Of a stretch of 64,000 nt of DNA, positions 796 through 49,807 are shown piece by piece (the stretch's first letter is position 1; each line of letters begins with the position of its first letter). The DNA is from Verrucomicrobiia bacterium (GTDB lineage Bacteria; Verrucomicrobiota; Verrucomicrobiia; JADLBR01; JAIBCM01): positions 22,143 through 86,142 of the forward strand of contig JAIBCM010000002.1 of assembly GCA_019694135.1 (NCBI GenBank), read 5' to 3'. The position numbers and the translations under genes are program-made. The notes beneath the pieces were generated by a model. It did not search any database, was not told where the DNA came from, and saw only the letters and a program-made list of their open reading frames with translations.

Positions 796-3700
796 TTATC
801 CTTTATCTTTTTTAAAAATTTCGCCAATTAAGGTTGCGGCATCGACTCCACCAGAAAGGGATTCTTCAAAACTTCCCTCGACCATTACGGCAAAGGCATA
901 GCGTGGGTTGTCAGCAGGCAAAAAGCCAGCAAACCAAGCGATTTGGCGCGGTTTGGCTTTGCTGCCCACTTGGGCAGTGCCTGTTTTTCCTGCCACTTGT
1001 ATGCCAGAAACTTGTGCTCTTCGGCCTGTTCCTTCTTCTGTTACTGACACCATGGCTTCTTTGACAAGATCGAATTGTTCAGGAGTAAAAGATAAGGTGT
1101 TAAGAATTTCAGGAGGAAACGTTTTTACGGTTTGGCCGTTTTGATCAAAAAATTCGCTAACGATTCTGGGACGATACAAAGTGCCATGGTTGGCAATGGC
1201 TGCAACGGCATTGGCTATTTGCAAAGGGGTTGTCAGGAGATCGCCCTGACCAATCGAAACGTTGGCGACATCACCAGCGCCCATAATGCGACCATATTTT
1301 TTTCGAATGTAGTCAGGTGTTGGCATGAGACCCGCCAATTCGCCGGGTAGGGGAACGCCCGTGATTTGGCCTATGCCAAGATTAGTAGCGACGTTGATCA
1401 AAGCGGTTCGTCCGGTTCGTAAACCTAAGTCGATAAAGTAAGTATTAATGGATTGAGCAAAAGCGTTGCGAAATGAGACGGGATAAGTTTCTCGTGGTAG
1501 ATTGAATCGCACATTGCCAATTTGGTAGTAACCTTTGCAATAAACGATGCGTTCAGGATCAAAAGTGCCTGCTTGTAAAGAAGCTAACGTAGTGATGATT
1601 TTAAAGACCGAACCAGGCGGATGAAATTGTCTGATGGCTCGATTTTGTAGTGGGTTATCTTCTGCCTGCAAAAAGCTTTGCCATTTTTCTGAAGATAGAG
1701 CGGGTAAAAAGTCGTTAGGATCAAAAGTGGGTTGGCTTGCCATAGCTACGATATCGCCATTGGTTACGTTCATAATAACAACAGCACCGGCGGCAATATT
1801 TGTTAAACTTTTTTCCACGGCTTTTTGTAGTTCGAGATCGAATGTAGTTCGAATATTTAAACCTGAAGTGGCTTGTTTTTCGATAGCGGTGCGCTGCGTA
1901 AAGCCTTCGGGTGTGGTGGCGATGACAAATTTTCCTGCTTGTCCATTAAGTTCCCTATCAAAAATTTTTTCTAACCCTTCCGCGCCTTGATATTGATCGT
2001 AAATGACTAAGTTAGCTTGATAAGGGCCAATGCGTGGTGTTTGAGCGCGTTGAAGATAGCCAAGAGTGTGGGCAAGCAGTTGGTTTTCGGGATAAACTCG
2101 TTTGGGATAAGTTTGGAGGACGAAACCTTCATCTCTCAATTTACTGTTGTTGAATTGAGAAACTTTTTCGGGTGTTAAATCGCTAATGACAACAGGTTGA
2201 AATCGTTGAAAGTTATAATGGTTAGTCAATGTTTCATTGGAAAAGGTGATGGATTTTTCTAGCCAATTTGAGGCAAGCTCTAATTTGGGTTTAATCCAAG
2301 TTAAGGCTTCTTCTGCTGAGTTTGCTGTTTCTAAGCTTGGCCAGGGCAGAACGAGGCTTTGGCCCGAGAGAGTTGTGGCTAAGGGTGAACCGTTTGCCGC
2401 GACGATATCTCCCCGCAGAGGTGGCATGATATATTCTGCTACGGGAGGAATAGAAGCATGATCGTTTTCCTCGGAAGGCGCTTGAGAAATGAGTTCGGAA
2501 GGATTAGAAAAAAGTGTTTGTAACCAACGAGACCAATCCTCATTTTCTGCAACGCGATTGATGCGTGAGACAGGCAGTGTATTCATAGAGTTGAGCTGGG
2601 ATTGTTTAAGATAAACAAAGGTATCACCTGGGCTGGGAGCAAAACCAGCGAGACCTTGAACGGTTCCAGTATTTTTTTCCACTTCGACTTTGATGAGACT
2701 AGATGGAATCGCAAAATTGGTGGGAGAAGAGGGGAGTCGGTTGACTATTTTTTCCCATAATGGAATGGCTGTTTTCGAGGCCAACGTTTTATTGCCAATG
2801 GAAATGGATGGATCATAACCCACCCACACTCCGGTGACCCAGCGCGGAGTGTAGCCTAGGAACCAAGCGTCTCGCTGATTTTCAGAAAAACTGCTAACAC
2901 CCGTAGCGGGTTGGGTTAAGTCTTGTCGCCATGCTTTGTCTCGGAGAGTTTGCTCTAAAGTTAAGGTCATTTGTTGAGCAGTGAGAGCTTCTAGTTGTGG
3001 CAAACCAGCGACATGAGGTCGGCGATAAAGCAATTTATTTTTTCCGTCGCGAATGGATCGAATAAAGAAAGCTTTTTTCTGGGTGCCTTGGTTAGCCAGA
3101 ATCTGGTAGAGCGAGGTGATCTCCCAAAGAGTTAAAGGTCTAAAATCGTGAAAGGTTTTTGGAAGAAAATTTTCGTCAAACCTAATACCAGTATTTTTTA
3201 GCCACTGCGCTAGATTAGCTAGTCCGATTTGGTGAGCGGTTCGAATGGCCGCGGTTTTATAATTTCCAGCCAAAGCATCTTGCAAAAGAAAAAAGCGTCT
3301 GTTGAGATTTTGTTCTGGATTGCCAAAAGTTATGGCTTGGGATGTTTTGATTTCGGGTTTGTCGATAAAGGAGCTGTCAATGAGAGAAGCTGGGTGCCAA
3401 CCTAGATTTTGCATGGCTAAAGCATATAAAAAAGGGTAGAGTGAAGCGCCATTGTCTCGTTGCGCCATGGTGATGCGATCAAATTGGCTTTGGGTAAAAT
3501 CTCTTCCTCCCACGTATGCTTGAACGGCGCCTTCAACAGCGTCCAAAATTAAAACGGCCGCTTGTAAAGGGCCTGGATTTTCAATAGTTTTGCGTAGGTT
3601 TTTTTCCTGGGTTAATTCCCATTCAACCTGGGTCAGAGTTTCTGAAACTGCCCGCTCTGCTGCTTGTTGTAAAGTTGTGTTGAGCGTAGTATACACCCGG

Positions 3701-4557
3701 AGGCCTTGAGGAAATTCATTTTCTTCGAGTTGTAAAACTTCCTGCAACTCTTGCATGATGAGAGGGGTGAAATATTTGTTTAATCCTACTGAAGTTTCTG
3801 GAACGAGACGAATTCGTTTTTGTCGCGCTTGCCAGGCTTGTTGTGATGTGATGAATTTTTCTTCCACCATGGTTTGTAAAACACGATCTCTTCCCTGAAG
3901 CGCTTTTTGATAGTCGCGTCTCGGTGAGGCGCTATTAGGAGAACGAATTAACCCGGCGAGCATGGCGCATTCCCCGAGGGTGAGTTGTTTAGCTGATTTA
4001 CCGAAATAGCCGCGCGCTGCGGCTTCTAAACCAAAATAGCCTTTGCCGAAATAGATTCGGTTGATGTAATAATCTAAGATCTCCTGTTTGGTAAAATGAT
4101 TTTCAATACGAAGCGCTAAAAAAGTTTCTATTAATTTACGATCCCAAGAGCGTTCAAACATGCCGATAGCATTTTTGGCGAGCTGCTGGGTAATGGTGCT
4201 TCCACCTTGAGTAAATTGGCCTGATTTTAAGTTAACTACGAGAGCCCGAACAATTCCGATGATATCAATGCCGTAATGCCAATAAAAACGACGATCTTCT
4301 GCGGCAATAATAGCTTGGCGCATGAGGTCTGGAATTTCATTATGTTTTAATACGATGCGATTTTCTAATGCAAGTCGTCCGATTTCCTTATCATTATCAT
4401 CATAAAAAATGCTCGTTTCATTGTATTTTGCGAGATCGTTCAGATCGTATTGTTGTGCAAGTTGATAGTGCGTTTTAACTTTGGGATAAAGCAGCCAAGT
4501 CGCTAATGTGATCAAGAGCAGAAAAAAAACTAAGCTTAACGTAAGAAATCGTTTCAT
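796..4557 (-). CDS. Multimodular penicillin-binding protein: GT51 transglycosylase, degenerate class-A transpeptidase, class-B (PBP2-like) dimerisation and transpeptidase module
   Basis: GT51 motifs EDRRFYWHYG and GGSTITQQ are present. The class-A TP region has ASLY in place of SxxK and lacks KTG. The C-terminal module has PBP2-like motifs QPTFDPN, PGSVFK and AGKTGTAQ. I place the start at MKRFLTLSL (ATG at 4555-4557), which overlaps the upstream stop by ATGA. A TM helix follows that start. Confidence 0.85.
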   Translation of the reverse strand: MKRFLTLSLVFFLLLITLATWLLYPKVKTHYQLAQQYDLNDLAKYNETSIFYDDNDKEIGRLALENRIVLKHNEIPDLMRQAIIAAEDRRFYWHYGIDIIGIVRALVVNLKSGQFTQGGSTITQQLAKNAIGMFERSWDRKLIETFLALRIENHFTKQEILDYYINRIYFGKGYFGLEAAARGYFGKSAKQLTLGECAMLAGLIRSPNSASPRRDYQKALQGRDRVLQTMVEEKFITSQQAWQARQKRIRLVPETSVGLNKYFTPLIMQELQEVLQLEENEFPQGLRVYTTLNTTLQQAAERAVSETLTQVEWELTQEKNLRKTIENPGPLQAAVLILDAVEGAVQAYVGGRDFTQSQFDRITMAQRDNGASLYPFLYALAMQNLGWHPASLIDSSFIDKPEIKTSQAITFGNPEQNLNRRFFLLQDALAGNYKTAAIRTAHQIGLANLAQWLKNTGIRFDENFLPKTFHDFRPLTLWEITSLYQILANQGTQKKAFFIRSIRDGKNKLLYRRPHVAGLPQLEALTAQQMTLTLEQTLRDKAWRQDLTQPATGVSSFSENQRDAWFLGYTPRWVTGVWVGYDPSISIGNKTLASKTAIPLWEKIVNRLPSSPTNFAIPSSLIKVEVEKNTGTVQGLAGFAPSPGDTFVYLKQSQLNSMNTLPVSRINRVAENEDWSRWLQTLFSNPSELISQAPSEENDHASIPPVAEYIMPPLRGDIVAANGSPLATTLSGQSLVLPWPSLETANSAEEALTWIKPKLELASNWLEKSITFSNETLTNHYNFQRFQPVVISDLTPEKVSQFNNSKLRDEGFVLQTYPKRVYPENQLLAHTLGYLQRAQTPRIGPYQANLVIYDQYQGAEGLEKIFDRELNGQAGKFVIATTPEGFTQRTAIEKQATSGLNIRTTFDLELQKAVEKSLTNIAAGAVVIMNVTNGDIVAMASQPTFDPNDFLPALSSEKWQSFLQAEDNPLQNRAIRQFHPPGSVFKIITTLASLQAGTFDPERIVYCKGYYQIGNVRFNLPRETYPVSFRNAFAQSINTYFIDLGLRTGRTALINVATNLGIGQITGVPLPGELAGLMPTPDYIRKKYGRIMGAGDVANVSIGQGDLLTTPLQIANAVAAIANHGTLYRPRIVSEFFDQNGQTVKTFPPEILNTLSFTPEQFDLVKEAMVSVTEEGTGRRAQVSGIQVAGKTGTAQVGSKAKPRQIAWFAGFLPADNPRYAFAVMVEGSFEESLSGGVDAATLIGEIFKKDKG

Positions 4558-6620
4558 TGCGTAGCTTCTTCCAATGTTCCCTCGGAAATTTCTTCTGTAG
4601 CCGGCAAAGGTTGTTCCTGTGGAGGTGAAGAAGATTCTTGAGAATAAATGGTGGCTTGAGGAATATAACCCAGTTGTTGGCTTAATGAACCCAACCAGTA
4701 GCATCGCCAAAATTGGCGCAAAGCTTCCATGCGGTCTTGGTCGTCAGGACTCATTTTTAGCACAGTGGCATATTCGTAGATCATGGCTAAAGGGGAGGTG
4801 TCGATATCGACATTTTGTGCTGCAGCCATTCCTTGACGTGCTGTGATTTCAGCGTTTTGTAACATTTTTTCTAGAGCGAGGCGGTTGCTTAAAGACCATT
4901 TTAAAGAATCTAATTTGAGTGAAGCGTTCCAATAAAAATATTTTTCCTTTAAAAGATCGGTTTCTAAAAAATAATTAATATCAAGAAAACATTGGGCGAC
5001 ATCATTGAAAGCAAATGAGGCGGCAGAAGTGGGCTGAGGTTGGGGTGGGCGATAGGCAGGGCCGGGAGTAAAACCGGCGTTCGCCAGAAGTGCACGTGGA
5101 ATTTGATGCGTTTCCCATTTTTTTTCCCAACTACGCTTGATGCGTTGTAGTAAGGTAGTTTGGCTTGCCAAACGAGTGTCCCAAATTAGTGAAGATTGCC
5201 ATTGGCTAGCGCGCTGTTTGATTTGGCCAGTAAAAGATTCACCTTTAGCTAGGAGCGCAGGTGTCAATTGATTGAGCCAATCGGTGGCGCGATGAGAAAA
5301 AGCGGAGGAGTCCGATTTTTTAAAGTTACGCTGGAAAACGGGAAAAATATCTCGGAGTTGGGTCTGATAGGTCACATAATAAAAACCGCTCATGAGCAAA
5401 ATAGCTGCTCGTTTTTTTTCATCTTCGGTTGCATCTGATTGCGAATGCCACGCTTGTCGGGCAATGGCAAGAGGACCCTCCAGTTTGGTTTGAAGAGTGA
5501 GCAACCAGTCATTGCGTTCTGACAAAAATAGACTGAGGCTCAAGTCGTTTTTATCCCATTCTTTATCTTGAGTTTTTTGAATGACGTCATCGAGTAGGCT
5601 TGAGGTTTGAGTGACAAAAGATTTTAATTGAGCTGAGTTTAAGTTAGTTTTGAAAGCTTGAGTGGCGGCGATTTCGCTTGAGGCGTCAATAAGGAGACGA
5701 TAAGCCGCGTAAACTTGGCCAGCTTGGTAAGCTTGCGAGCCTTGTTCAAAGAGCGACAAAGCGCGTTGCCAGATGGCTTGTTCCCAAGGAGAAAGTTGCT
5801 GTAGGGCTTGTGTAGAAGGCCAGAGATTTTTCGTGCGCAACAGTTCGTTAATTTGATTTTGGCAACGTTGCGCTAAAAAACTGAATGTGCTGTTGGAATA
5901 ACGACAGGGTGTGGTATTCCAAGTTGCTGAAGGCAGGCTGTGATCCAATGCTATTTCGGCAGCTTCAGCTAAGTTTTGGGCATAAAAAACTTTTAATTTT
6001 AATGTCTTGGCTTTCGCGGCGGTATCTAAAAGTTTATTGGGATGAGTGCGATCCAAGTGTTGATTGTCAGATAAAATTATTTTTTTTATACCGGTGTTGA
6101 CAGCCAGTTCCATGCGTGATTCAACATTTTGAACAGGACCGAGCGATTGATCGGGTAGTAGAGTAGCGAGAAGTAATGTGTCTTGAGGATAGTCGATGCC
6201 GCAAGCGGTAGCGAGTAAACCGAGCGATAGCGAAGCGCAGCTTTCTGAATCGATGGCACCGCTAAGTTCGCTCAAAACCCAATCAGCATTTTGCCAGGGT
6301 TGTTGCCACAATATTGCACTGGCCAGGGTGGCGGGCCAAAGTTGTTGGGATAACGATTGTGTGGTTTCAGGTGACATAGCACCGTCAAACCGAAAGTTAA
6401 TGGTTTCTGAAGTGGTTTCGATTTGGGGATTCCATTGAATATTAAGTTGGGAGAGTGTGATGTTTGAGTTTTTATCCAAAACGAAAAGAGGAATTTTTTG
6501 TTCAAATAATTCTTCTGTTTTTTTAAATAAAGGGAGCGATGCCCCGTGGGCAGGGAAAATAAAAACAAGAAATAGTCCTAACCATTGGCAGGTTCGTTGA
6601 TAAGAAAAATAATTACACAT
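4554..6620 (-). CDS. Secreted protein with N-terminal Lon-protease (S16)-like domain and long helical C-terminal region
   Basis: Signal-peptide-like N-terminus MCNYFSYQRTCQWLGLFLVFIFPAHGA. The segment DSESCASLSLGLLATACGI...LGPVQNVESRMELAVNTGIKKIIL aligns to the Lon block DGPSAGIAM...[24 protein letters not shown]. The catalytic Lys position reads as Glu. Confidence 0.6.
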   Translation of the reverse strand: MCNYFSYQRTCQWLGLFLVFIFPAHGASLPLFKKTEELFEQKIPLFVLDKNSNITLSQLNIQWNPQIETTSETINFRFDGAMSPETTQSLSQQLWPATLASAILWQQPWQNADWVLSELSGAIDSESCASLSLGLLATACGIDYPQDTLLLATLLPDQSLGPVQNVESRMELAVNTGIKKIILSDNQHLDRTHPNKLLDTAAKAKTLKLKVFYAQNLAEAAEIALDHSLPSATWNTTPCRYSNSTFSFLAQRCQNQINELLRTKNLWPSTQALQQLSPWEQAIWQRALSLFEQGSQAYQAGQVYAAYRLLIDASSEIAATQAFKTNLNSAQLKSFVTQTSSLLDDVIQKTQDKEWDKNDLSLSLFLSERNDWLLTLQTKLEGPLAIARQAWHSQSDATEDEKKRAAILLMSGFYYVTYQTQLRDIFPVFQRNFKKSDSSAFSHRATDWLNQLTPALLAKGESFTGQIKQRASQWQSSLIWDTRLASQTTLLQRIKRSWEKKWETHQIPRALLANAGFTPGPAYRPPQPQPTSAASFAFNDVAQCFLDINYFLETDLLKEKYFYWNASLKLDSLKWSLSNRLALEKMLQNAEITARQGMAAAQNVDIDTSPLAMIYEYATVLKMSPDDQDRMEALRQFWRCYWLGSLSQQLGYIPQATIYSQESSSPPQEQPLPATEEISEGTLEEATQ

Positions 6621-6691
6621 GGAATGATCATTCATTAAGCGATCTGGCGACAAAATCAATGAACAACCCTAATGGGGAGAGAATTAATGAG

Positions 6692-7789
6692 TTAATTCTC
6701 AGTTCTTGTCGTGAGTTTTTTGGCGTCAACGACTAGAAAACGGCCACGATTTTTTCTCGCTAATCCTTCTAAAAATTCTTTTTCATTGGGTTTTTCTGCC
6801 GCTGTGAGGAAATAGATGGCATGTAGTCGCACAGGTTCGGTCAAAGTTTTTTGTAAATCTGCTGTTTGTTTCCAAATTTCTTCAGCAGGAATTTTTCCGC
6901 CTTGAGTTTTATTAGCGTCTCCGTCGGAAATCAGATAAATAATGTCGGGTTGCATGGCGAAAGCTTGTTCAATAGCCAGATCGGTGCGTGTGCCGCCCAT
7001 GCCATCTTCTAAAAGATCCCCACCTATGACGCGCTGTTGTTTGCGGACGCTGGTTTGCGGATCTTCAGAGATGCCTTGAATCCATTTTTTGGCTTCCGCT
7101 TTATTTTGATCGGTAGAGGGAACCAGTTGCGATTTAAAGGCGAGGGAGCCTCCTTCCCAAATAATAAGGCCAAATTGTGTGTTAATACTTAGGCCATCTA
7201 TGAGTTTCATGGCTTCTTGTTTAATCATGTAGTAAGGCATTTTGATCATGTTTCCGTTAAGACTTCGTTCGAACATGGTGTTGGAAGCGTCAACAGCGAT
7301 AACAATTTTAGCGCCGGTGTCTTTGATGCCGAAAAAGCCGACCGAAGAACCATTCCCTACGCCTGTTAAGCCGGCTTTTCCGCCAAAGGAACTGGAACCG
7401 GATAAGGATAAAACGCCATCGGAGATAACGGCGGATGCATTGAGCGGTAAGGATTGGTCGAGAGGAAGTTTAGGCAATGGAGGTAATCCTTTATCCATCA
7501 TGCGTGTACTCGTAAGAGGACTGCTAAAGGCTGGAGTAGAAGCAGCTTCTTCAAAGGCAGCTAGAGCCATTTTTTGTTCACGTTCGGGGGAGGTAATTTT
7601 AAATTTTTTTGGTTCAGCAACAAAAGTAGCAGGCGGAGCGATGAGATATTTGGCCACAATGACGGCACCGGCGATGATACCTGCTAAAATATGAGCGCCC
7701 AGGCTAATCAAAAGGATAGTGATAAGCATTTTTCGGCGTTTATTTTTTTCGCCTACGCCTTCTTTAAGCTGATCTATGCTGATATCCAT
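6692..7789 (-). CDS. Membrane-anchored von Willebrand factor A (VWA, MIDAS) domain protein with TonB-like N-terminal TM helix and Pro-rich linker
   Basis: Start placed at MDISIDQLKEG to avoid overlap with exbD. One TM helix (LITILLISLGAHILAGIIAGAVIV) is followed by a Pro-rich spacer. The VWA domain carries the MIDAS motifs VDASNT, GGTRTDLAIEQA and IYLISDGDAN. Confidence 0.7.
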   Translation of the reverse strand: MDISIDQLKEGVGEKNKRRKMLITILLISLGAHILAGIIAGAVIVAKYLIAPPATFVAEPKKFKITSPEREQKMALAAFEEAASTPAFSSPLTSTRMMDKGLPPLPKLPLDQSLPLNASAVISDGVLSLSGSSSFGGKAGLTGVGNGSSVGFFGIKDTGAKIVIAVDASNTMFERSLNGNMIKMPYYMIKQEAMKLIDGLSINTQFGLIIWEGGSLAFKSQLVPSTDQNKAEAKKWIQGISEDPQTSVRKQQRVIGGDLLEDGMGGTRTDLAIEQAFAMQPDIIYLISDGDANKTQGGKIPAEEIWKQTADLQKTLTEPVRLHAIYFLTAAEKPNEKEFLEGLARKNRGRFLVVDAKKLTTRTEN

Positions 7790-7802
7790 AATTTCGTAAA
7801 GG

Positions 7803-8258
7803 TTATAGGTCAAAATCGTCTTCGGGATCGGAAGCAAATGTGACGCCTTTGATACCTGCCAGGGCACAAGTGTTCATAACATCGATGATGCGTTGATGCA
7901 CCACGCCATCTTCGGGAAAAAGAGTAACTAAAGCTTCGGCTTGGTTAGCATCGCTAGCTTCTTTATAGCGTTTTAAGGTTTCAAGCAATTGAGGCAATTG
8001 TGAGTCGGTGGGACTATCTAAAGTTTGTTCGTTGAGTACGACTTGGCCATTGGCGCGAATTTCGATGCGTTGTTCATCGGGCAGATCGACTGATTCTTCT
8101 TGTGACACGGAGCCGGGAAGTTTGGTGCTGACATCGGCTTCGGGTTTTACGGGTTTGGAAGTCAGAATGTAGAAGAAGAGTAGCAAGAAACATACGTCGA
8201 TCATGGGTGCGATTTGAAGTTCGACTTGAGGATGTTCAGTTTTTTTAGGGGTTGCCAT
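7803..8258 (-). CDS. exbD: ExbD/TolR family biopolymer transport protein
   Basis: N-terminal LQIAPMIDVCFLLLFFYI is the ExbD/TolR TM signature. Length is ~150 aa. Confidence 0.8.
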   Translation of the reverse strand: MATPKKTEHPQVELQIAPMIDVCFLLLFFYILTSKPVKPEADVSTKLPGSVSQEESVDLPDEQRIEIRANGQVVLNEQTLDSPTDSQLPQLLETLKRYKEASDANQAEALVTLFPEDGVVHQRIIDVMNTCALAGIKGVTFASDPEDDFDL

Positions 8259-8264
8259 AATCTT

Positions 8265-8693
8265 TTAATGTTGAGTAGTTCCAAAGATGACTTGAATGGC
8301 TCCGGCTTCTGCAGCGGCTTTCATGACATCTTTGATTTGTTTCGCAGGGGTTTTTGCGTCGGCTCGCACGTAAATGATAAGAGGTGGAACATCGGTAAGG
8401 CGTTGTTTCAGATAGGCTTTTAATTCGCGCATATCCATTTGGCGTTCGCTAGCGAAGTATTGGCCTTTTTCATCGATATTGACTACATCTCGTCCACTTA
8501 AATCTTCCGGCACGACTGAGGACTGGGCGCGAGGCAAGTTAATATTCATGAGTTTCTGGCTTTTAGTTAGTTTGCCAGAGAGCATGAAGAAAAAGAGCAA
8601 GAGCATGGTGACGTCGATCATGGGCGCAATTTGAAGCCCCACTTCTTCGTGAGTCACTTTTCGCGGACGTTTGCGCTGGATTTGCTCTGCCAT
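8265..8693 (-). CDS. exbD: ExbD/TolR family biopolymer transport protein (second copy)
   Basis: The motif LQIAPMIDVTMLLLFFFM is present. The gene is a paralogue of the adjacent exbD. Confidence 0.8.
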   Translation of the reverse strand: MAEQIQRKRPRKVTHEEVGLQIAPMIDVTMLLLFFFMLSGKLTKSQKLMNINLPRAQSSVVPEDLSGRDVVNIDEKGQYFASERQMDMRELKAYLKQRLTDVPPLIIYVRADAKTPAKQIKDVMKAAAEAGAIQVIFGTTQH

Positions 8694-8747
8694 AATTTAA
8701 TTTTATTAACTACTACTCTATTTAGACGTCATCAGGTTGTATTTCAT

Positions 8748-9557
8748 TTAAGATTGGAAATCAGGCCCTACGGGTAAGGTGCTGCCATCATTTTCTCCTG
8801 CTGCAACGGCCGCAGCGGCTAACCCTTCCATGGTGACTTCACCTGTGAATAGATCAAGCATGGTGGAAACGGCTTTATGCACGTCGACCATTAAGGCTTG
8901 AGCTTTGCCGCGGAAGAAGAAGTAAAGGAACATGGAGGGAATCGCGAGCATCAAACCGCCGGCGGTTGCTACGAGCGCTTCACCAATACCGCCCGCCAGA
9001 TCGGTGGCTTCGGCTTTACCGGCAGTCAACGCGCTAAAGGAGTTAATCATACCGCTTACCGTTCCTAACAACCCGATCATGGGCGCCATGACGGCGAGGG
9101 TGTTGAGGTAAGTGATGAGCACTTGCACTTTGGTTTCTTCATGGTAGACGGCATCAGCCACAGCGTTTTCCATGGCAGCTTTGTTAAACATATCTCTTTC
9201 AAAGTTTGCCTTGGTTAAAGCAGAGGTCAGCGTGTGGGCTAATGGCCCGGGATTTTCTTTGCAAATTTGAAAGGCGTTGGGGATGTTGCGTTGGCTCATG
9301 GTTAAGTTTAGTTGGTGGATAACGCTGTCTGGCAGGATTTTTTTTCTGCGTAATTGTAATCCTAAAAATCCGCCTAAAGCTACGCAACCGACTGAGCAAA
9401 GAGCGATGATGTGCATGATGGGACCTCCTTCATGGTAGAGGTCGAGCAAGCTTTTGCTGGATTCAACCTTAGGCGCGGCCCAGGTCGATTGCAAACCGAA
9501 TGTGAGCCATGTCACAAGGATAAGACCGATGTAGTAAAGAGGTTTTAATGTTTTCAT
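8748..9557 (-). CDS. exbB: MotA/TolQ/ExbB proton-channel family protein
   Basis: Signal-like N-terminus followed by three TM helices. The C-terminal block GLLGTVSGMINSF...AGGIGEALVATAGGLMLAIP is typical of ExbB/TolQ. Confidence 0.8.
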   Translation of the reverse strand: MKTLKPLYYIGLILVTWLTFGLQSTWAAPKVESSKSLLDLYHEGGPIMHIIALCSVGCVALGGFLGLQLRRKKILPDSVIHQLNLTMSQRNIPNAFQICKENPGPLAHTLTSALTKANFERDMFNKAAMENAVADAVYHEETKVQVLITYLNTLAVMAPMIGLLGTVSGMINSFSALTAGKAEATDLAGGIGEALVATAGGLMLAIPSMFLYFFFRGKAQALMVDVHKAVSTMLDLFTGEVTMEGLAAAAVAAGENDGSTLPVGPDFQS

Positions 9558-9562
9558 AGAGG

Positions 9563-10447
9563 TTATTGGGTTGTGGTTTCTTTTTCTTCGTTTTGTTCTT
9601 CTTCTTTCTCTTCAGTTTTTACTAAAGGTTTTAATTCTTTTAGCTTGGTTTGAGCACGTGCAAAGATGGAACTTTGCGGGTAATCGGCAATGATATCTTG
9701 CAACACTCTAACGGCTGCTGAAAGATTGGTTTCTGCCAGATAAACGCGCGATGCGCCCCATAAGCCGCGACCCACTTCTTCCTTGAGAGTTGGGTTGAAT
9801 ACGCGGTTATAGAGAAAATGATCCAAAGCAGCGGGATAATTTGTGCGTCCAAGCTCAACTTCGCCCAGTACTAATTGCACGAAGGCGACGATGGAAGAGT
9901 CTTTGGATTGCTCTTCCATTTGTTTGGCCATGACCATGGCTTCTTCGAAACGATTCAGGCCGGCCAAACATTTCACCTTTAATGGAGCGACAAGAAACTT
10001 TCTTTTTTGATTCCAGTCTTGAGCTTCGATTTGTTCCACAGCTTTGAGCGCTTCGTCGAATTGTTTTAGGTCGATCAGTGTTTCAGCGCGGGCAAATAAC
10101 ACCTCACCAGCAGGAGATTCTGGAATGGAAAGAAACGATTGCCAAAATTTCCAAAGCGGGTCGAGAGTTGTTAAGCGCGCGGCTGGATCAGTAGGCAGTT
10201 TGGATCGATCGAAAGTGGCTTCAAAAACGATTTTTTCGATTTGATCTAAATTGTAAGCGCTTTCGGCTTTGCCGCCTCGAAATTCAACTTGAATATAAAC
10301 TTTATTTTTTTCGGAGCGTAAAACTTTGCCTTCAATTTCATCTAAAGTTTTTAAAACTACGAGATCTTGTGCATGAATAGAGGTTAAACCCGCAATAGCC
10401 ATGAGGCCTAACACAAAACTGAGCTGAAAAAAATTCTGTGTTTTCAT
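9563..10447 (-). CDS. Secreted TPR-repeat protein
   Basis: Signal peptide followed by helical TPR-like repeats. The gene overlaps the upstream TPR gene by 4 nt. Confidence 0.6.
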   Translation of the reverse strand: MKTQNFFQLSFVLGLMAIAGLTSIHAQDLVVLKTLDEIEGKVLRSEKNKVYIQVEFRGGKAESAYNLDQIEKIVFEATFDRSKLPTDPAARLTTLDPLWKFWQSFLSIPESPAGEVLFARAETLIDLKQFDEALKAVEQIEAQDWNQKRKFLVAPLKVKCLAGLNRFEEAMVMAKQMEEQSKDSSIVAFVQLVLGEVELGRTNYPAALDHFLYNRVFNPTLKEEVGRGLWGASRVYLAETNLSAAVRVLQDIIADYPQSSIFARAQTKLKELKPLVKTEEKEEEQNEEKETTTQ

Positions 10448-13242
10448 GAGGAGGTTGGCTTGGGTTCCGAAGCCGGGTTGACATTGGCGCCTGGTTTTAA
10501 TTCGGCGAGTCTTTGTTGAGCAGCTTTATATTCTTCAAAACTTGCCAGATCTGCTTCTTTTAAGAAAGCTTCGTAAGTTTCAATCGCTTGAGGTTTTAAT
10601 TGTAAGGTTTCGAGCGCTTTGCCGCGGGCTAAATAAGCTTTTGATACCCAGTCGCGGTAGCGAGCATAGAGAATGTAAATGCGTTCGTAATAAGCGCAGG
10701 CTTCTTTCGTTTTACCCATTTGCTCGTTGAGTTGGCCCAGTTGATAAAGCGCTTGCACCCAGGGCTTGCCCTTGGCAGCAGGAGTTTCCAATATTTTTTC
10801 CAAGGTTGCAATAGCTTCTGGAATGCGTTTTTGGTTTTTGTAAATTTCTACTTTGGATTCTAAGATTTTTGGTAGAAGGATGGAGGAGCCGGATTCAGCT
10901 TCAAAGCGATCAAACATAGCAAGCGCTTTAGTTTCATCTCCTTTTGCTAAGGCAATGAGGCCTAAGCCCGCTAGAGCACGATCGGTGAAACGAGTTTTTT
11001 TAGGAGTGTTGGCCAAGATATTCAAATAAGTTTCAGCTTCGGCATAGCGCTTTTCAGTGACTAACAGTTCTCCCAAGTCAATGCAGAGCCGTTGGGAAAG
11101 TTGTTCCGGTTTGAAGCGATCAGGACGGGCTAATTCTAAAAGCGCAAGACGGGCTTGATCCGGGTTGGAGCGACGTTGGAGTTGAGCAAGAAGCCAGAGA
11201 TAACGCGCAGCTTGTATGGGTTTGCCAGCAGCAAGTAAGTTGTCCTTACCCTTTTCTAGCTCGCTGATCAGAGCTGCTTTATCGTCGACAGTGGGGAAAA
11301 GTTTGGCGTAGCCGATGAAAAGGTCTTCAACAAAATTGCTCTTCAGATCAGAGCCGTATTTTTCCAGGGCAAGTCGGTAAAAACGGCGCGCATCTTCAAT
11401 TTGATCGAGTTGGCGCAAACCCCAACCGGTCCAGTGATAGGCTTCGACAACGCGACCACTATTCGGGTTTTTGTCGATAAATTTTTTGAAATGATCGACC
11501 ATTTTTTCGTATTGTTCAGTAAGTCGAAGCGCTTTGCCAATTTGGAATTGTGCATATTCATAGAGTCGTTCGTTGGCTGGGCCGACTTCGCTAAACATTT
11601 TGATGCCTTCATCGGGATCGCCTTCAGCGAACCAAGCGTCACCAGCTAGGGCGCGCACTTCATCGGTGAGCGGGTTTTGAGGATAGGTTTTTACCCAGTC
11701 CACAAGTTTTTTGCGTGCTTCTTCATATTTTTTTTCGCCATAATCAGCGGCTGCCATGCGATAGATGGCTTCTTCTTTGAAGGTGCCTTGGGGATATTCT
11801 TTGAGATAAAGGTTGAATCGCGTGCGAATTTCAGGGTAGTTTTTTGCAAAAACGGCAGTCATGGCATTCCAATAGAGATTATTTTCTGCCAAGGGACTTT
11901 TAGGAAATTGTTGTCGGAAACGAGCAAAGGAATCGGTGGCTTCTTGATATTTTTCCAGAAAAAGCGCGCTGTAACCGGCCAAAAATAAAACGCGATCGGC
12001 TTGAGGAAATTGAGGATAAAGTTTGGTGTGTTTAGTAAAAACGTTATAGGCATCTTCAAAGCGGTTATTATTAAGATAAGCTTCGCCCTCGAGATAGGCG
12101 GCTTGAGGTGCGCGTGAGTCGTTGGGATAGCGTTTGATGAAAGAGGCGACGAGTTCTTGAACTTTGTCCCAACGTTGTAATTCCACAGCAGCTAGGATGG
12201 CGAGGTAATGACCGACTATGACCGGTTCGGTTCGGGGCTGGGTTTCGGCTACGGCTATAGCAGCGAGATAGCCTTCTCCAGGGCGTTCGCATTGCAGGGC
12301 GCATTGTGCGACACGTAAGTGACGGTTGAGATCGAAAGTTTCCATTTTGGTAAGATTTTCTTTCTCACGAATCAGGCCGTCTTTCATTTGTTGGAGTTGG
12401 AGCGCTTTAATGCTGAGCCCTTGAGCGTAACGGGTAAGTTGTTTTTCTACGTCAGTCAGTAGTTTTTCTTGTCTGTCCAAAATTTGAGCTTTGAGCGGGA
12501 TGAAAAGGTAGCAGCGATAGGCTTTGTTGTATTCTCCATCTTCATAAAAATCGTCGCCTAATTGCATGGCCTGCAGAGCAAGAAGAGCTTGCTGACGAAT
12601 GGGTTCGGGTTTGGCGCGCAAAATTTCTAGCACAGCCAGTGCGCCATCAAGATCACGGCTTTCGAGCAAGCTTTGCAAGCGCATGAGCATGGCGCGTTCA
12701 GCGGTTAAAGGGTCGCGCGTTTTACTGGCAATTTCAAAAAGTGCAGCAGCTTCTTTATATTTTTTTTCTTGGAATTGCGAGTTAGCCATTAACATTTGCG
12801 CTTCGGAAGTTTGCGGCGTGTTAGGATAGTTTTTTAAAAAAGTTTCAAAGGCGCTGATGGCTTCGCTGAATTTTCCTTGTTGATAGCGGGATAATCCTAG
12901 CCAGAAAGACATATCCGGCACGGCCTTGCCTTGTGGATATTCTTTAATATAGGTTTCAATGATGGGCTCGGCCGCTTCGGGTTTTTGTATTTGCAAATAA
13001 GACGCTGCGAGGAGAGGGTAAACTTCGGGTTTTACTTTTTGCGCTTCAGGACTGGAGCCATAGGAGGTTAAAAAATTTTCGTAAATTTTAGCCGCTTCTG
13101 GAAAATTTCCAGCATTAAAAGCGCTTGAGCCACGCTGTAAGAGATCATCCGCTGTGCCAGTGCCAGCTTGGTCTTGTGCGTTCGCCAGAGAGGAAATTAT
13201 CCCTAACGCTACCATCATTACGAAACGCCGAATGCACTTCAC
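10444..13242 (-). CDS. Large secreted tetratricopeptide-repeat protein (932 aa)
   Basis: Signal peptide MKCIRRFVMMVALGIISSLANAQ is followed by many W-LG-Y-A-F-P TPR-type repeats along the whole length. Confidence 0.7.
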   Translation of the reverse strand: MKCIRRFVMMVALGIISSLANAQDQAGTGTADDLLQRGSSAFNAGNFPEAAKIYENFLTSYGSSPEAQKVKPEVYPLLAASYLQIQKPEAAEPIIETYIKEYPQGKAVPDMSFWLGLSRYQQGKFSEAISAFETFLKNYPNTPQTSEAQMLMANSQFQEKKYKEAAALFEIASKTRDPLTAERAMLMRLQSLLESRDLDGALAVLEILRAKPEPIRQQALLALQAMQLGDDFYEDGEYNKAYRCYLFIPLKAQILDRQEKLLTDVEKQLTRYAQGLSIKALQLQQMKDGLIREKENLTKMETFDLNRHLRVAQCALQCERPGEGYLAAIAVAETQPRTEPVIVGHYLAILAAVELQRWDKVQELVASFIKRYPNDSRAPQAAYLEGEAYLNNNRFEDAYNVFTKHTKLYPQFPQADRVLFLAGYSALFLEKYQEATDSFARFRQQFPKSPLAENNLYWNAMTAVFAKNYPEIRTRFNLYLKEYPQGTFKEEAIYRMAAADYGEKKYEEARKKLVDWVKTYPQNPLTDEVRALAGDAWFAEGDPDEGIKMFSEVGPANERLYEYAQFQIGKALRLTEQYEKMVDHFKKFIDKNPNSGRVVEAYHWTGWGLRQLDQIEDARRFYRLALEKYGSDLKSNFVEDLFIGYAKLFPTVDDKAALISELEKGKDNLLAAGKPIQAARYLWLLAQLQRRSNPDQARLALLELARPDRFKPEQLSQRLCIDLGELLVTEKRYAEAETYLNILANTPKKTRFTDRALAGLGLIALAKGDETKALAMFDRFEAESGSSILLPKILESKVEIYKNQKRIPEAIATLEKILETPAAKGKPWVQALYQLGQLNEQMGKTKEACAYYERIYILYARYRDWVSKAYLARGKALETLQLKPQAIETYEAFLKEADLASFEEYKAAQQRLAELKPGANVNPASEPKPTSS

Positions 13243-13329
13243 TCTTTAAGTGTAATTTTGATAAGAAAAAAGACAAGGGAAATTCTATGAAAAAAATTAT
13301 TGTTAATTTCTTTTTGATGGCAATAATAG

Positions 13330-22135: not shown

Positions 22136-23074
22136 CTAATATATCGATGCTTTTTCTTTACAGGCTGACTTATAACTTAAAATAGAGGCATTTTCGAAGG
22201 GGAAATAGTATTCAAATTTTAAACCGGTTGGTCGGTTTAAATAGAGCCTAACTATTAAGTGAATGAATTTAGTTTTTTCTTCGAAATTTTCTTTTAAATA
22301 CCCATAAGCCCCTAATGGGAACTGGCATCCTCCTCCAAAACCTGCTAAAAATTGACGTTCAGTTTCTACGCAACAGCGTGTGATGGGATCATCTAAGGAT
22401 TGTGCCAAGGCTTGGCTTTGGGAGTCATGAGTGCGAGTTTGTATAGCGAGTGCTCCTTGTCCTGGAGAGGGTAGTAAAATGTCGTAACTGAGCGGAATGA
22501 TTTTGAGGTTCGAAGTTTCCGGCGATAATCTTTCTAATCCTGCTGCGGCTAAAACTAGGCCATGCCAATCGGAATTTTGTTCCAATTTTTTAAGGCGCGT
22601 GTCGATGTTGCCGCGAATTGCACTAAATTGTAAATCAGGTCGCAATCGCAGCAATTCTTGTTGTCGTCGAGGACTACCTGTTGCTAAGTGCGCATTCTTT
22701 GGCAAATCTTCAAATCGGGTTTCATATCGGGTGATTAGCACATCGTGAGCACTCGCTCGTTGTGGAATGGCAGCAATGGTAAGTTCAGGTGTTAGCTCCG
22801 TGGGTAAATCTTTTAAACTGTGCACAGCAAAATCAATTTCTTTTGTGAGTAGTGCGTTCTCCAATTCTTTCGTGAATAAACCTTTGCTTAAGGGCGTAGT
22901 CGAAGAAGTGATTGCAGATTCATTTTGTTTTTGTAGTTGATCACCTTGAGTTTTGATAAGTCGAAGTTCAAAAGTTTGACTGGGAAAGTTTTTCTGTAGT
23001 TGATCTTTTACCCAAGTGGTTTGAGCCAATGCCAAGGCGCTGCCTCGTGTCCCAATAATAAAAGGTTTCATCAA
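22136..23074 (-). CDS. hemC: Porphobilinogen deaminase (hydroxymethylbilane synthase)
   Basis: N-terminal motif IGTRGSALALAQT. Length is 312 aa. Confidence 0.85.
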   Translation of the reverse strand: MMKPFIIGTRGSALALAQTTWVKDQLQKNFPSQTFELRLIKTQGDQLQKQNESAITSSTTPLSKGLFTKELENALLTKEIDFAVHSLKDLPTELTPELTIAAIPQRASAHDVLITRYETRFEDLPKNAHLATGSPRRQQELLRLRPDLQFSAIRGNIDTRLKKLEQNSDWHGLVLAAAGLERLSPETSNLKIIPLSYDILLPSPGQGALAIQTRTHDSQSQALAQSLDDPITRCCVETERQFLAGFGGGCQFPLGAYGYLKENFEEKTKFIHLIVRLYLNRPTGLKFEYYFPFENASILSYKSACKEKASIY

Positions 23075-23079
23075 GCAGT

Positions 23080-24144
23080 TTAAGGAACCTTAGAGAATTG
23101 AGGTAAGGAAGGGCTATCAGAAGGAAAGGCCAGTTGACACCAGTTCATAAAATGTTCTACTTGTTCTTGAATAATTTTTTCCCCTTGTTGAATCGCAGCT
23201 TGACGTTCGGCGAGATTTTTATCGGCAATGGAACGGAGATCATCAATATTATAAAGATAAACGTCATCTTTTTGTGCGAGAATAGGGTCGATGTCGCGAG
23301 GGACAGCGAGATCGATTAAAAATAGCGAGCGCGCTTTTCGTTTTTCTAAAATAGGCAAACATTTTTCAGCAGTCATCACGTAATGAGGGGCGGATGTGGA
23401 ACTGATCACAATATCAGCTTCTAATAATTCTTGATCCCAATTTTCAAAAGGAACCGCTTTACCGCCTAGTTCCGTAGCAAGTTCTTGGGCGTGGTCGAAA
23501 GTGCGATTGGCTACAATTACAGCCTGAATCCCACGTGCAACTAGGGCTCGTGCAGTTTTTTCGCTGGTTTCTCCAGCGCCAAGTAATACGACTTTGCGAT
23601 GCGATAAATCGCCAAAAATCTGTGCAGCAAGTTCCACGGCTGTTGATCCCACCGAAATGCTACCGCGAGTGATGTCGGTTTGATTGCGGACTTTTTTTCC
23701 CGTTTGAAAAGCAGTTTGAAATAATCGGTGCAACGTTTTGTTGACTAACTTTAAATCATGCGCTTGGGCGTAGGCTTGTTTGAGTTGACCCAAGATTTCG
23801 GTTTCGCCCAAGACCATGGATTCCAAACCCGAAGCGACGCGGAATAGATGTTGAACAGCACGAACGCCTTTGCGAGTCCAAAATTGATCTAATCCATTTT
23901 CGCAATTTTCGTTAAGCAAAGCAAATAAACCGTGCAAATAAGTAAAGGGATTGGAATGAGTCGTCATCACACTGTAAAATTCGATGCGGTTACAAGTAGA
24001 AAGAGTCACCCAACCCTGAATGCCTTCTTGTTTTTTTAGCCAGGTGCTGATTTCAATCTGTTGCGAAGCGTTTAAAGCCAATCGTTCACGCACTTCTACG
24101 GGCGCTTCGCGATGACTCAAACCTAGACAAATAATTTCTTCCAT
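23080..24144 (-). CDS. hemA: Glutamyl-tRNA reductase
   Basis: The motif LGLSHREAPVEVRE...LSTCNRIEFY carries the HemA active-site Cys. An NADP Rossmann fold is present. Confidence 0.85.
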   Translation of the reverse strand: MEEIICLGLSHREAPVEVRERLALNASQQIEISTWLKKQEGIQGWVTLSTCNRIEFYSVMTTHSNPFTYLHGLFALLNENCENGLDQFWTRKGVRAVQHLFRVASGLESMVLGETEILGQLKQAYAQAHDLKLVNKTLHRLFQTAFQTGKKVRNQTDITRGSISVGSTAVELAAQIFGDLSHRKVVLLGAGETSEKTARALVARGIQAVIVANRTFDHAQELATELGGKAVPFENWDQELLEADIVISSTSAPHYVMTAEKCLPILEKRKARSLFLIDLAVPRDIDPILAQKDDVYLYNIDDLRSIADKNLAERQAAIQQGEKIIQEQVEHFMNWCQLAFPSDSPSLPQFSKVP

Positions 24145-24159
24145 AGCTATTTAAAAACT

Positions 24160-24942
24160 TTATGAATAGGGAATGTGTTTCGTATTCCAAAATGTTGACA
24201 ATAGTATAACATAAATCAGCAAGGAAAACAGAGCCGTTTTCTTGTTGCTCAAGCGTTGTAGCGAACTTAAGACGAGCAAGCCCAGATACAAAACCCAAAC
24301 GCTGGCCGCCCAAATTAAGATGAGCCAGTTGCGTGTTCCCCAAATAAATAATCCTGCCGTGATTCCCAAAGTTAATAATGTTAACCCGTAGGCAAGTAAA
24401 TGGCGTTGCACGCGTGCCAATTCATGAAGCGAAGGCCAACGAGCAAGCCAGCCAGTAAATTGTTTGCGTTTCAGCCAGTTTTCTTGAAGTAAGAAAACGG
24501 CGCCTGTTAATCCTGCTAAGCCTAAAGCGCCATAGGCTAAGATATTTAGGGCTGCGTGCAGTTCCAGGGCAGGATTTTTAGGAAAGCTGAGAGCCACTTT
24601 ATCAGGAATGAATAGTTGAGTTGATAGTAAAATTAAGCAAATAGCAGGTGCTGTCAAAGCTCCTAGCAAGGTCATTCGATAGAGAGGGCCAACGATCAGA
24701 TAAGCTAAACCTAAAGACCAAGCCACAAAGACCAGGATTTCAAATAAAGTTGAAACAGGGCAATGCTGAATGACATGACCCCGTTGAATCAAAAAAGTGG
24801 TATGAAACCCCATGGCCATTACGAAACAACTGAATAAAAGAGGCGTAGGCTTAAAAAGACGACTTGGCACTCGGTAAAAACTTCCGATAAAAGCTAACCC
24901 ATACCCTAACGTTGCTAAAGCAAGCCAAAACCGATCTGACAT
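24160..24942 (-). CDS. Cytochrome c assembly family membrane protein (CcsA-like/HemX-like)
   Basis: Polytopic membrane protein placed directly upstream of hemA, as in hemAXCD-type clusters. Confidence 0.55.
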   Translation of the reverse strand: MSDRFWLALATLGYGLAFIGSFYRVPSRLFKPTPLLFSCFVMAMGFHTTFLIQRGHVIQHCPVSTLFEILVFVAWSLGLAYLIVGPLYRMTLLGALTAPAICLILLSTQLFIPDKVALSFPKNPALELHAALNILAYGALGLAGLTGAVFLLQENWLKRKQFTGWLARWPSLHELARVQRHLLAYGLTLLTLGITAGLFIWGTRNWLILIWAASVWVLYLGLLVLSSLQRLSNKKTALFSLLIYVILLSTFWNTKHIPYS

Positions 24943-35370: not shown

Positions 35371-36063
35371 ATGGCGACACCTGTCTCTTTAGCTGTTTTT
35401 TTTGCTGTGCCTCATGAAGCTGCGTTATTGAAAAAAAAACTGAAATTTCGATGGCAAAAAAAAGGCGTTGGCTTGTTTTTTGCTGAAACTCGGGTGAGGG
35501 ATAAAACCATTCTTTTCGCTTGTTTAGGAATGGGCAAAGAAGCAGTGAAGAAAAATTTAACATTTCTTTTAGATTATTTTACTTTTTCTCAAGCGATTTT
35601 AGCGGGTTACGCTGGAGCGCTCGATCCCAAACTCGAAAAAGGAGATATTGTCATTTCTGATAAGCGATACTTGGATTTATTGCCTGATTTAAAATTAGGA
35701 AAAATTATTTCTGTTGATACAGTAGCAGCTACTGCCGAAGAAAAATATGCGCTATTTCAAAAAACTGGCGCTTCTGTTTGCGATATGGAGTATGAAGCAG
35801 CTTTGGTGATTTGTCAGAAACACAACCTTACTTTGTATTCGATTCGAGCTGTGAGCGACACGGCTCACGAGAATTTACCTTCAGGCGCGCTAGCAAGCGC
35901 TTTTGATTTAAAAAGGCAACGATCAACTCCTTTAAAGATTTTTTGCTATGGGATAAGACATCCTCGGAATATGATTTCTTTTTTTAAATTTGTTCATGGA
36001 CTGGCAAAATCTCAAAGAGCTTTAACACAAATCTTGATTCAAATATTAAAAAATCAATCTTAG
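35371..36063 (+). CDS. hpnG: Hopanoid-associated nucleoside phosphorylase (PNP/MTAN family, HpnG-like)
   Basis: The protein has the PNP_UDP_1 fold with GMGKEA and CDMEYEAA...IRAVSD motifs. The gene sits immediately 3' of shc. Confidence 0.6.
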   Translation: MATPVSLAVFFAVPHEAALLKKKLKFRWQKKGVGLFFAETRVRDKTILFACLGMGKEAVKKNLTFLLDYFTFSQAILAGYAGALDPKLEKGDIVISDKRYLDLLPDLKLGKIISVDTVAATAEEKYALFQKTGASVCDMEYEAALVICQKHNLTLYSIRAVSDTAHENLPSGALASAFDLKRQRSTPLKIFCYGIRHPRNMISFFKFVHGLAKSQRALTQILIQILKNQS

Positions 36064-38258: not shown

Positions 38259-38272
38259 GGAGATTTAAAAAT

Positions 38273-40638: not shown

Positions 40639-40662
40639 AAAAAGCCCGCGTCTAATGATAAT

Positions 40663-43521: not shown

Positions 43522-43623
43522 TAAAGCGGTGAGGCGAAAGAATAAAAAATATATTTTTACTCTAAAATTGGCTGAATGGCTGCGGAAGACAGCGCGTTTT
43601 TAATAGGAAGGCGTTGTGCGATC

Positions 43624-44442: not shown

Positions 44443-44445
44443 ATT

Positions 44446-46958: not shown

Positions 46959-46962
46959 TGTT

Positions 46963-48078: not shown

Positions 48079-48090
48079 AGGATAAGAATT

Positions 48091-49659: not shown

Positions 49660-49733
49660 ATTGTGTTGGGTTGATATTTTGGATTCACAAGCAAAGGGTT
49701 TTCGGTCAATCTACCAAATCTTTCTTGGATTTT

Positions 49734-49807
49734 CGGGCCGTGGCGTAGCTTGGTAGCGCGCTTCCTTGGGGTGGAAGAGGTCCCGGGTTCAAATCCCGGC
49801 GGCCCGA
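49734..49807 (+). tRNA. tRNA-Pro (anticodon GGG)
   Basis: Acceptor CGGGCCG/CGGCCCG with A73. Anticodon stem-loop CUUCC-UUGGGGU-GGAAG. T-arm CCGGGUUCAAAUCCCGG. Confidence 0.85.

Follow-up and report, generated by a model that had tools for sequence, protein, structure and literature searches.

A VWA-type motor cluster and a Lon-fold/three-part PBP gene pair as likely independent neighbours in a narrow verrucomicrobial clade

Gene content of the locus

The DNA analysed here is a 64,000-nucleotide stretch of a Verrucomicrobiae metagenome-assembled genome (GenBank assembly GCA_019694135.1, contig JAIBCM010000002.1, positions 22,143 to 86,142; hereafter the window), and our subject is a cluster of eight co-directional, closely packed genes on its minus strand at positions 796-13242 (Table 1). 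The cluster encodes two secreted proteins with tetratricopeptide repeat (TPR) signals, one ExbB-like and two ExbD-like motor subunits, a membrane-anchored protein with a domain of von Willebrand factor A (VWA) type, a secreted Lon-fold protein and a penicillin-binding protein (PBP) of three parts. A preliminary description, made from the sequence alone, had read these genes as one undescribed machine, driven by the proton-motive force, in which a Tol/Ton-like motor is wired to a peptidoglycan synthase. Our comparative analyses point to a different arrangement: the eight genes likely represent two independent, separately conserved modules, genes 1-6 (module A) and genes 7-8 (module B), which are neighbours, and possibly co-transcribed, in one narrow verrucomicrobial clade.

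The physical layout was confirmed as first described, with all eight genes on one strand and with overlapping or coupled junctions. Genes 1 and 2 overlap by 4 nt (10444/10447), genes 7 and 8 share an ATGA overlap (4557-4554), and the gaps between genes 2-3, 3-4, 4-5, 5-6 and 6-7 are 5, 54, 6, 13 and 56 nt, respectively. NCBI K1X66_02595 matches the gene 7 protein at 100% identity. All domain calls of the preliminary description were likewise verified, the VWA domain and the Lon fold requiring family profiles or a structure model.

Table 1. Genes and candidate signals of the cluster, in window coordinates
Feature	Position	Strand	Description
Gene 1	10444..13242	-	932 aa; secreted TPR protein with about 8 YbgF/CpoB/BamD-like TPR units (module A)
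Gene 2	9563..10447	-	294 aa; secreted, weak TPR signal (module A)
Gene 3	8748..9557	-	269 aa; ExbB/TolQ/MotA-family proton channel subunit (PF01618)
Gene 4	8265..8693	-	142 aa; ExbD/TolR-like subunit 1 (PF02472)
Gene 5	7803..8258	-	151 aa; ExbD/TolR-like subunit 2, heterologous paralogue (PF02472)
Gene 6	6692..7789	-	365 aa; membrane-anchored VWA protein, putative force transducer
Gene 7	4554..6635	-	693 aa; secreted Lon-fold protein (module B)
Gene 8	796..4557	-	1253 aa; three-part PBP (module B)
Candidate promoter	13296..13323	-	sigma-70-like TTGCCA-16-AATAAT; best such site of this strand, just upstream of gene 1
Hairpin at the module junction	6679..6700	-	AT-rich, 9 bp, covers the stop codon of gene 6; folding energy -20.5 kcal/mol, z-score -2.3

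Motor, TPR and VWA proteins of genes 1-6

The product of gene 1 carries a signal peptide followed by TPR units, and matched the Pfam TPR families and YfiO. It scored 202.5 bits over 8 stretches against TIGR02795, the 119-residue model of the YbgF/CpoB unit (cut-off 90.1), and 126.6 bits against the BamD model TIGR03302; the full-length CpoB model NF008068 gave 88 against a cut-off of 383. Gene 2 matched TPR_19 at 7.3e-8. Gene 3 was assigned to PF01618 at 1e-26 and remained below the equivalog cut-offs of both TolQ (TIGR02796, 70.8 against 221) and ExbB (TIGR02797, 54.9 against 206). The two ExbD-like proteins were similar in this respect: genes 4 and 5 matched PF02472 at 3.3e-21 and 7.5e-19, with a membrane-helix Asp (PMIDV) at residues 27 and 21, respectively, scored 50.2 and 41.6 against the TolR equivalog TIGR02801 (cut-off 127.3), and fell under the cut-off of every ExbD model. 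As the preliminary description had stated, the classical partners are missing from the cluster, since profile searches of the eight proteins gave no match to TonB_C, TolA, TolB or OmpA/Pal (PF03544, PF06519, PF07676, PF00691); the scanned other open reading frames (ORFs) of at least 150 aa in the window were likewise negative for these four families.

Gene 6 encodes an N-terminal membrane helix (nt ~7652-7729, LITILLISLGAHILAGIIAGAVIVA), a Pro-rich/low-complexity or disordered linker of ~110 aa, and a VWA domain (nt ~6731-7318) with residues of the metal ion-dependent adhesion site (MIDAS) type, DASNT, GGTR and SDGD. As a single sequence it had no Pfam or NCBIfam match even at E<=10, and family profiles were required to recognise the domain: the family profile matched the VWA domain of ITIH4 (8.4e-9) and BatB (0.01) in the PDB, PF00092 was matched by 11 of 20 homologues, and D166, S168 and D288 were invariant or nearly so in the family alignment. 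Within the membrane helix lies an S29-x3-H33 motif (nt 7691-7705), which is only the S-x3-H part of the SHLS motif of TonB and TolA, the Leu and second Ser being off the TonB spacing. With its helix-linker-VWA build, gene 6 directly follows one ExbB-like and two ExbD-like genes in an order that is strongly conserved, and the proposal that a VWA/MIDAS protein fills the TolA/TonB slot was thus upheld.

Conservation of module A and its relation to a published family

A scan for the gene 6 family, with one genome per GTDB species, yielded 80 verrucomicrobial loci, and synteny was subsequently counted by tblastn of the eight window proteins against 88 loci. Among the loci with at least 5.6 kb before the VWA gene (n=70), 52 carried genes 1, 3, 4 and 5 in the window order directly upstream of it, and gene 2 was detectable in 48 of these 52 core-bearing loci. 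The carriers of the core order include Chthoniobacterales, Terrimicrobiaceae, Verrucomicrobiales, Methylacidiphilales and the isolate Luteolibacter pohnpeiensis. Genes 1-6 are therefore a strongly conserved module. In addition, the membrane-helix His covaries with motor linkage: of 57 VWA proteins linked to a motor, 55 have it, compared with 7 of the 19 that lack such a link (Fisher p = 1.2e-7). The full Ser-x3-His occurs in only 27 of the 57 motor-linked proteins.

Module A is a member of a family that has already been published. Section 8 and Fig. 4a,b of 'Origin and Evolution of Bacterial Periplasmic Force Transducers' (Mol Biol Evol 2025, PMC12204202) present predicted motor clusters with a 'vWA force transducer' in the Planctomycetes-Verrucomicrobia-Chlamydiae (PVC) group, with a Tichowtungia family, and report that AlphaFold 3 predicts docking of the vWA transducers on the motor and that the phenotype is not known. 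The published description agrees with module A point by point, although of the SHLS motif gene 6 shows the S-x3-H part only. Thus, the idea of a VWA protein in the TolA/TonB slot is right, yet it is not new, and module A can no longer be called undescribed.

Some loci of the gene 6 family differ from this pattern. In a group of membrane-anchored VWA paralogues, mostly from Opitutales and Puniceicoccaceae (L001, L062, L066, L071, L078-L083 and L087), Gln takes the place of this His, and neither motor genes (ExbB, ExbD) nor TPR genes were detected upstream. A Coraliomargaritaceae locus (L084, 5099-12219) has the shuffled order TPR-ExbB-VWA-ExbD-ExbD and a predicted VWA helix lacking the His; it is possibly an example of the second class of the published account, whose vWA protein is inserted in the pentamer. 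Some Chthoniobacterales loci (L003/L004/L017 and L058) keep the helix His and have TPR(935), TPR(326) and VWA genes adjacent to one another with no ExbB or ExbD gene between them; their motor genes may lie elsewhere in the genome.

The three-part PBP and the Lon-fold protein of module B

The PBP encoded by gene 8 opens with an intact GT51 domain (PF00912 at 1.1e-61; nt 3868-4386, residues 58-230; EDRRF and GGSTITQQ), which forms part of a PBP1A-family region extending to residue 607 (TIGR02074, 515.8 bits against a cut-off of 508.75). The class-A transpeptidase of this region (nt ~2737-3570) is degenerate, with GASLYP for SxxK and ATGVS for KTG; in E. coli PBP1A, the first of the two motif positions reads GSNIKP. 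Behind it follow a PBP2-like pedestal (PBP_dimer, PF03717 at 8e-22; nt 1903-2424, residues 712-885) and a second, C-terminal transpeptidase (PF00905 at 2.4e-71; nt 847-1788, residues 924-1237), which looks active, to judge from its motifs SVFK, SIN and KTGTA; the C-terminal half as a whole scored 444.4 bits against the MrdA model TIGR03423 (cut-off 455). The fused architecture recurs in at least 120 clusters of 1240-1540 aa with 42-50% identity over the full length, and in all 13 of the homologues inspected the first SxxK is replaced by GA(L/S)xQ/Y-P (e.g., GALLQP) and the second transpeptidase is intact. As the window also contains a canonical mreB-mreC-(mreD)-PBP2-rodA operon (42484-48078), with the PBP2 gene beside rodA at 44967-46958, the class-B half of gene 8 represents an additional paralogue and not the PBP2 of the Rod complex. 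Literature searches for the fused PBP returned nothing relevant.

The secreted protein encoded by gene 7 consists of a domain with the Lon-protease fold (nt ~5931-6509) and an all-helical domain of ~410 aa (nt ~4668-5894). The single sequence gave no Pfam or NCBIfam match at E<=10, and the Lon fold was recognised through a family profile and an AlphaFold2 model, in which the predicted local distance difference test score was 85.8 with a 35-sequence alignment (42 with a 4-sequence alignment). A word-indexed homologue search found only 4 relatives, falsely pointing to an orphan, whereas 192 representatives at E<=1e-3, 41 of them at <=1e-30, emerged from an exhaustive HMMER search. The catalytic Ser position of Lon is occupied by Glu (nt 6231-6251) and the Lys position by Arg (nt 6105-6125); in the 37-sequence family alignment, the Ser column holds 15 Gly, 7 Ser, 5 Glu, 4 Asp and 4 Ala, and the Lys column holds Arg in 32. 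Distant relatives of the same architecture (~650-700 aa, among P0207-P0274) keep DGPSAG...K and match Lon_C. Since the Ser-Lys dyad was lost here and kept in those relatives, gene 7 appears to belong to a pseudo-protease branch of a secreted Lon-like family. Profile scans of gene 7 gave no AAA match, the remainder of the model being the helical domain, for which no specific structural match was obtained; the protein has neither a PDZ module nor a lipoprotein signal. Genes of similar size (~700 aa) that lie downstream of the VWA gene in L029, L031, L074 and L055 were considered as remote gene 7 homologues and were ruled out, as they had no match to the gene 7 profile.

Genes 7 and 8 also occur together outside the clade of the window. 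A gene 7 homologue directly precedes a fused PBP both in L089, a Methylacidiphilales metagenome-assembled genome (32% identity, E = 4e-112), and in L090, a contig from freshwater (30% identity, E = 4e-96); the genes upstream of the pair are a PG_binding_1 gene in L089 and a Na/H exchanger gene in L090, with no motor genes. In L092, a gene 7 relative is located between an upstream ShlB-type gene and a downstream GT51 PBP. The pair is thus found with neither motor nor VWA gene in three distant lineages, and by this sequence evidence genes 7-8 appear to be a separately conserved pair. We consider it fairly probable, if less so than the division into two modules, that the three-part PBP has, in the pseudo-Lon protein, a dedicated partner or regulator of a new kind.

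Juxtaposition of the two modules

For the downstream side, counting was restricted to motor-bearing loci with at least 3 kb after the VWA gene (n=43). Genes 7 and 8 were present in only one of them, the close relative L005; the remaining loci have downstream genes of varying size and strand, with no match to the gene 7 profile among them. The order of genes 6-7-8 was found only in the window, L009 (VWA 96% identical), L005 (92%) and L094/L095 (88%), which are four lineages of one clade, and for the next relative (L007/L010, VWA 53%) 450-700 nt of downstream sequence were available and gave no gene 7 signal. Conservation of the gene order in relatives, the lack of which the preliminary description had named as part of its refutation, therefore holds for the motor-VWA core (52 of 70 loci) and fails for the link from motor to PBP (1 of 43). 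Given this frequency, and given that the pair occurs motor-free in three other lineages, the 'wiring' to a peptidoglycan synthase is not supported as a property of the system and is best described as a clade-specific juxtaposition.

The transcription signals at the junction were also considered. The hairpin over the gene 6 stop codon (Table 1) has no U-run and is not conserved in the junction alignment of the four lineages. Read by eye, the alignment shows short hairpins beyond the stop of gene 6 in L005 and L094, with a T-run behind two of them, which may point to partial termination between the modules. The number of sigma-70-like consensus sites in the region was not above shuffle expectation, and consensus scans for promoters and terminators alike performed no better than shuffles and do not settle the operon structure. 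Nevertheless, the junction has persisted in the clade and its 56-nt spacer has no canonical terminator; the two modules are thus possibly co-transcribed there, and some functional link within the clade is possible.

Proposed functions and alternative explanations

The following model of complex formation, partners, direction of regulation and physiological role is an extrapolation from the domains, motifs and synteny statistics given above. In module A, an ExbB-like pentamer (ExbB5) would hold a heterodimer of ExbD1 and ExbD2, both with a helix Asp, and proton flow would be turned into movement, by which the stator would pull on, or rotate against, the gene 6 protein. The latter would dock on the motor via its membrane helix, with Ser29 and His33, in the manner of TonB and TolA, cross the periplasm by its ~110-residue linker, and grip a partner with its VWA/MIDAS head, most likely the co-conserved secreted TPR proteins or an outer-membrane component bound by them. 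In module B, the GT51 domain of gene 8 would polymerise glycan and the appended PBP2-like transpeptidase would cross-link it, with the original class-A transpeptidase serving as a dead scaffold, and the gene 7 protein would bind gene 8 and regulate, position or scaffold it, as pseudo-enzymes and Lpo-type factors control wall enzymes. The comparative data nowhere require crosstalk of the two modules.

The output of module A is most likely Tol-like envelope maintenance or outer-membrane tethering, an assignment that we make tentatively; adhesion or gliding seems quite improbable. A distinctly less favoured, though serious, explanation is that module A energises uptake across the outer membrane in a Ton-like way, e.g., selfish polysaccharide import, and that its VWA head engages an outer-membrane transporter or plug-like partner. 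The ExbB/ExbD-family motor and the TonB-like S-x3-H helix are consistent with such a function, as are the occurrence, according to PMC12204202, of the vWA system in some PVC species lacking both TonB and TolA, and the accumulation of glycan in the periplasm of Verrucomicrobiota (PMC13174399). Three observations tip the balance towards the Tol-like role: the partners conserved along with the motor are TPR proteins of BamD/CpoB type, no gene for a TonB-dependent transporter or outer-membrane channel was noted beside the cluster in the window or in the loci with listed genes, and the cluster is surrounded by housekeeping genes. No TonB-box partner is at hand either.

Whether the modules are indeed independent has to be weighed against the original proposal of one proton-motive-force-driven envelope machine made of all eight genes, in which control over the PBP is exerted, mechanically or allosterically, by the VWA transducer through the Lon-fold protein, as an analogue of Tol-CpoB-PBP1B. 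Several points speak for this machine and against two modules. The genes share a strand and are tightly spaced, with the ATGA overlap of genes 7 and 8 and the short, terminator-free spacer between genes 6 and 7; the arrangement is kept in four lineages of the clade, and the junction persisted while gene 7 diverged to 55% identity (L094/L095). Gene 1 is made of CpoB/YbgF-like units, and CpoB is the coupler of Tol to PBP1B in E. coli, so that a peptidoglycan link is not implausible in principle. In addition, the pairing of genes 7 and 8 outside the clade rests on individual contig look-ups at three verified loci and one unverified locus, where a more distant gene 7 relative lies between an Amidase_2/LysM gene and a truncated 868-aa gene, and L091, which encodes a fused PBP of the long type, has no gene 7 neighbour. 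However, the link is missing in 42 of the 43 motor loci with downstream sequence, genes 7 and 8 occur together and motor-free in L089, L090 and L092, and hairpins after the gene 6 stop in L005 and L094, two of them with T-runs, hint at partial termination. A single eight-gene machine is therefore unlikely. We judge equally unlikely its clade-restricted variant, in which the motor and VWA protein captured the pseudo-Lon/PBP pair into one operon, and proton-driven force transmitted via the VWA head, directly or through the CpoB-like TPR proteins, gates the synthase; such a system would be an analogue of Tol-CpoB-PBP1B coupling that evolved independently. For gene 7, the alternative to a pseudo-enzyme regulator is an active protease of the periplasm, with a role in processing the PBP or proteins associated with the wall, to which the clear Lon proteolytic-domain fold, the Ser-Lys dyad retained by distant relatives of the same architecture, and one pairwise motif reading that puts a Ser two residues off the expected position would all be favourable. 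This is very unlikely, as Ser is found in only 7 of the 37 family members, with Glu in the window and Arg at the Lys column in 32, and no AAA+ or PDZ module for substrate feeding is present. The most likely explanation thus remains that of two independent, separately conserved modules.

Genomic surroundings

The genes flanking the cluster are unrelated to it, and the setting is one of housekeeping genes. Downstream lies a YggS-like Ala_racemase_N gene, and upstream a hypothetical gene and the gene for NADH dehydrogenase subunit H, all on the opposite strand. About 9 kb from module A, hemC, hemA and a CcsA-like gene for heme biosynthesis and cytochrome c assembly are found (22136-24942, minus strand), and the same genes directly adjoin module A in a distant relative (L008, 1495-4309); this proximity may be a remnant of an older shared neighbourhood.

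Other features of the window include a hopanoid-type cluster (33397-39124) with squalene-hopene cyclase, PNP_UDP_1 (HpnG-like), a 732-aa fusion of SQS_PSY and amine oxidase, and a further SQS_PSY gene. At 39559-41163 (plus strand), a gene for a peptidyl-arginine/agmatine deiminase of the Porphyromonas type precedes one for a small protein with EF-hand and dockerin-like repeats. In the Rod operon, the mreD slot holds a 174-aa ORF with no Pfam match that is probably mreD, and the plus-strand region (42484-51688) continues after rodA with genes for RNase G, tRNA-Pro, an AI-2E family transporter and an RlpA-like DPBB+SPOR protein (51005-51688). The GC skew, in 2-kb bins over the entire window (1-64000), is positive in all bins but one (-0.006, 52-54 kb) and reaches 0.3-0.39 at 40-52 kb, whatever the strand of the genes.

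Significance and comparison with known systems

The only description of the motor-VWA family that we found is a computational one (2025), the relevant section of which reports no phenotype or known partner. To this, the present analysis adds a quantified synteny across Verrucomicrobiota, shows that the helix His covaries with motor linkage, and names Luteolibacter pohnpeiensis KCTC 22041 (L074) as a carrier in culture. The pair of the pseudo-Lon protein and the fused PBP is the more original lead. We found no description in the literature of the widespread verrucomicrobial PBP with a dead class-A transpeptidase and a fused PBP2-like module, or of the secreted Lon-fold pseudo-protease that is its conserved neighbour, and both are possibly new. 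To our knowledge, Lpo-type activators have not been reported in Verrucomicrobiota; if gene 7 does regulate the synthase, it would represent a new class of PBP accessory factor. Coupling of the motor to the PBP would be important if true, and the comparative evidence speaks against it as a general property of the system.

Module A shares with Tol-Pal the family of 5:2-type motors driven by the proton-motive force, a putative inner-membrane transducer that would span the periplasm and has a helix His, and possibly a TPR partner, given the CpoB/YbgF-type units of gene 1. It differs in having two ExbD paralogues, where Tol-Pal has one TolR, in lacking the TolA/TonB C-terminal domain, the TolB propeller and the OmpA domain of Pal, and in TolQ and TolR scores far under the cut-offs. 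With ExbB-ExbD-TonB it has in common the motor family and the logic of the S-x3-H helix, whereas the head of gene 6 is a VWA/MIDAS domain in place of TonB_C and no transporter was noted beside the cluster. The Akkermansia MUL1 locus, in which mul1A (Amuc_0544) encodes a TPR protein, was also considered as a possible counterpart.

The closest relatives of module A are the vWA force-transducer clusters (PMC12204202), which, as described in section 8 of that paper, likewise consist of a TPR gene, one tolQ/exbB-like gene and two different tolR/exbD-like genes followed by a vWA protein with an N-terminal helix bearing a His of the SHLS type, a linker that is disordered or Pro-rich and a vWA domain at the C-terminus, and occur in Verrucomicrobia; the likeness to the Tichowtungia vWA protein is drawn from this published description. 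In contrast to these clusters, the window has a second TPR gene besides that for the 932-aa array, and its clade alone has the pseudo-Lon and fused-PBP genes appended downstream, an arrangement to which section 8 makes no reference.

The non-catalytic derivatives of the Lon S16 domain, namely RadA/Sms, ComM and the C-terminal part of BrxL, are together with Lon itself the known relatives with which gene 7 can be compared, and it differs from them in its periplasmic location, the lack of AAA+, the fusion to a helical domain of ~410 aa and the pairing with a PBP. Gene 8, finally, resembles both the class-A PBPs with activators (PBP1A/LpoA, PBP1B/LpoB/CpoB) and PBP2 (MrdA), as it combines an intact GT51 domain, a PBP1A score above the cut-off, an MrdA-like C-terminal half and an adjacent putative accessory gene. 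Unlike the class-A enzymes, it has a degenerate class-A transpeptidase followed, in the same chain, by a complete class-B module, and unlike the Lpo and CpoB activators, its putative accessory protein is a Lon-fold pseudo-enzyme with no lipoprotein signal.

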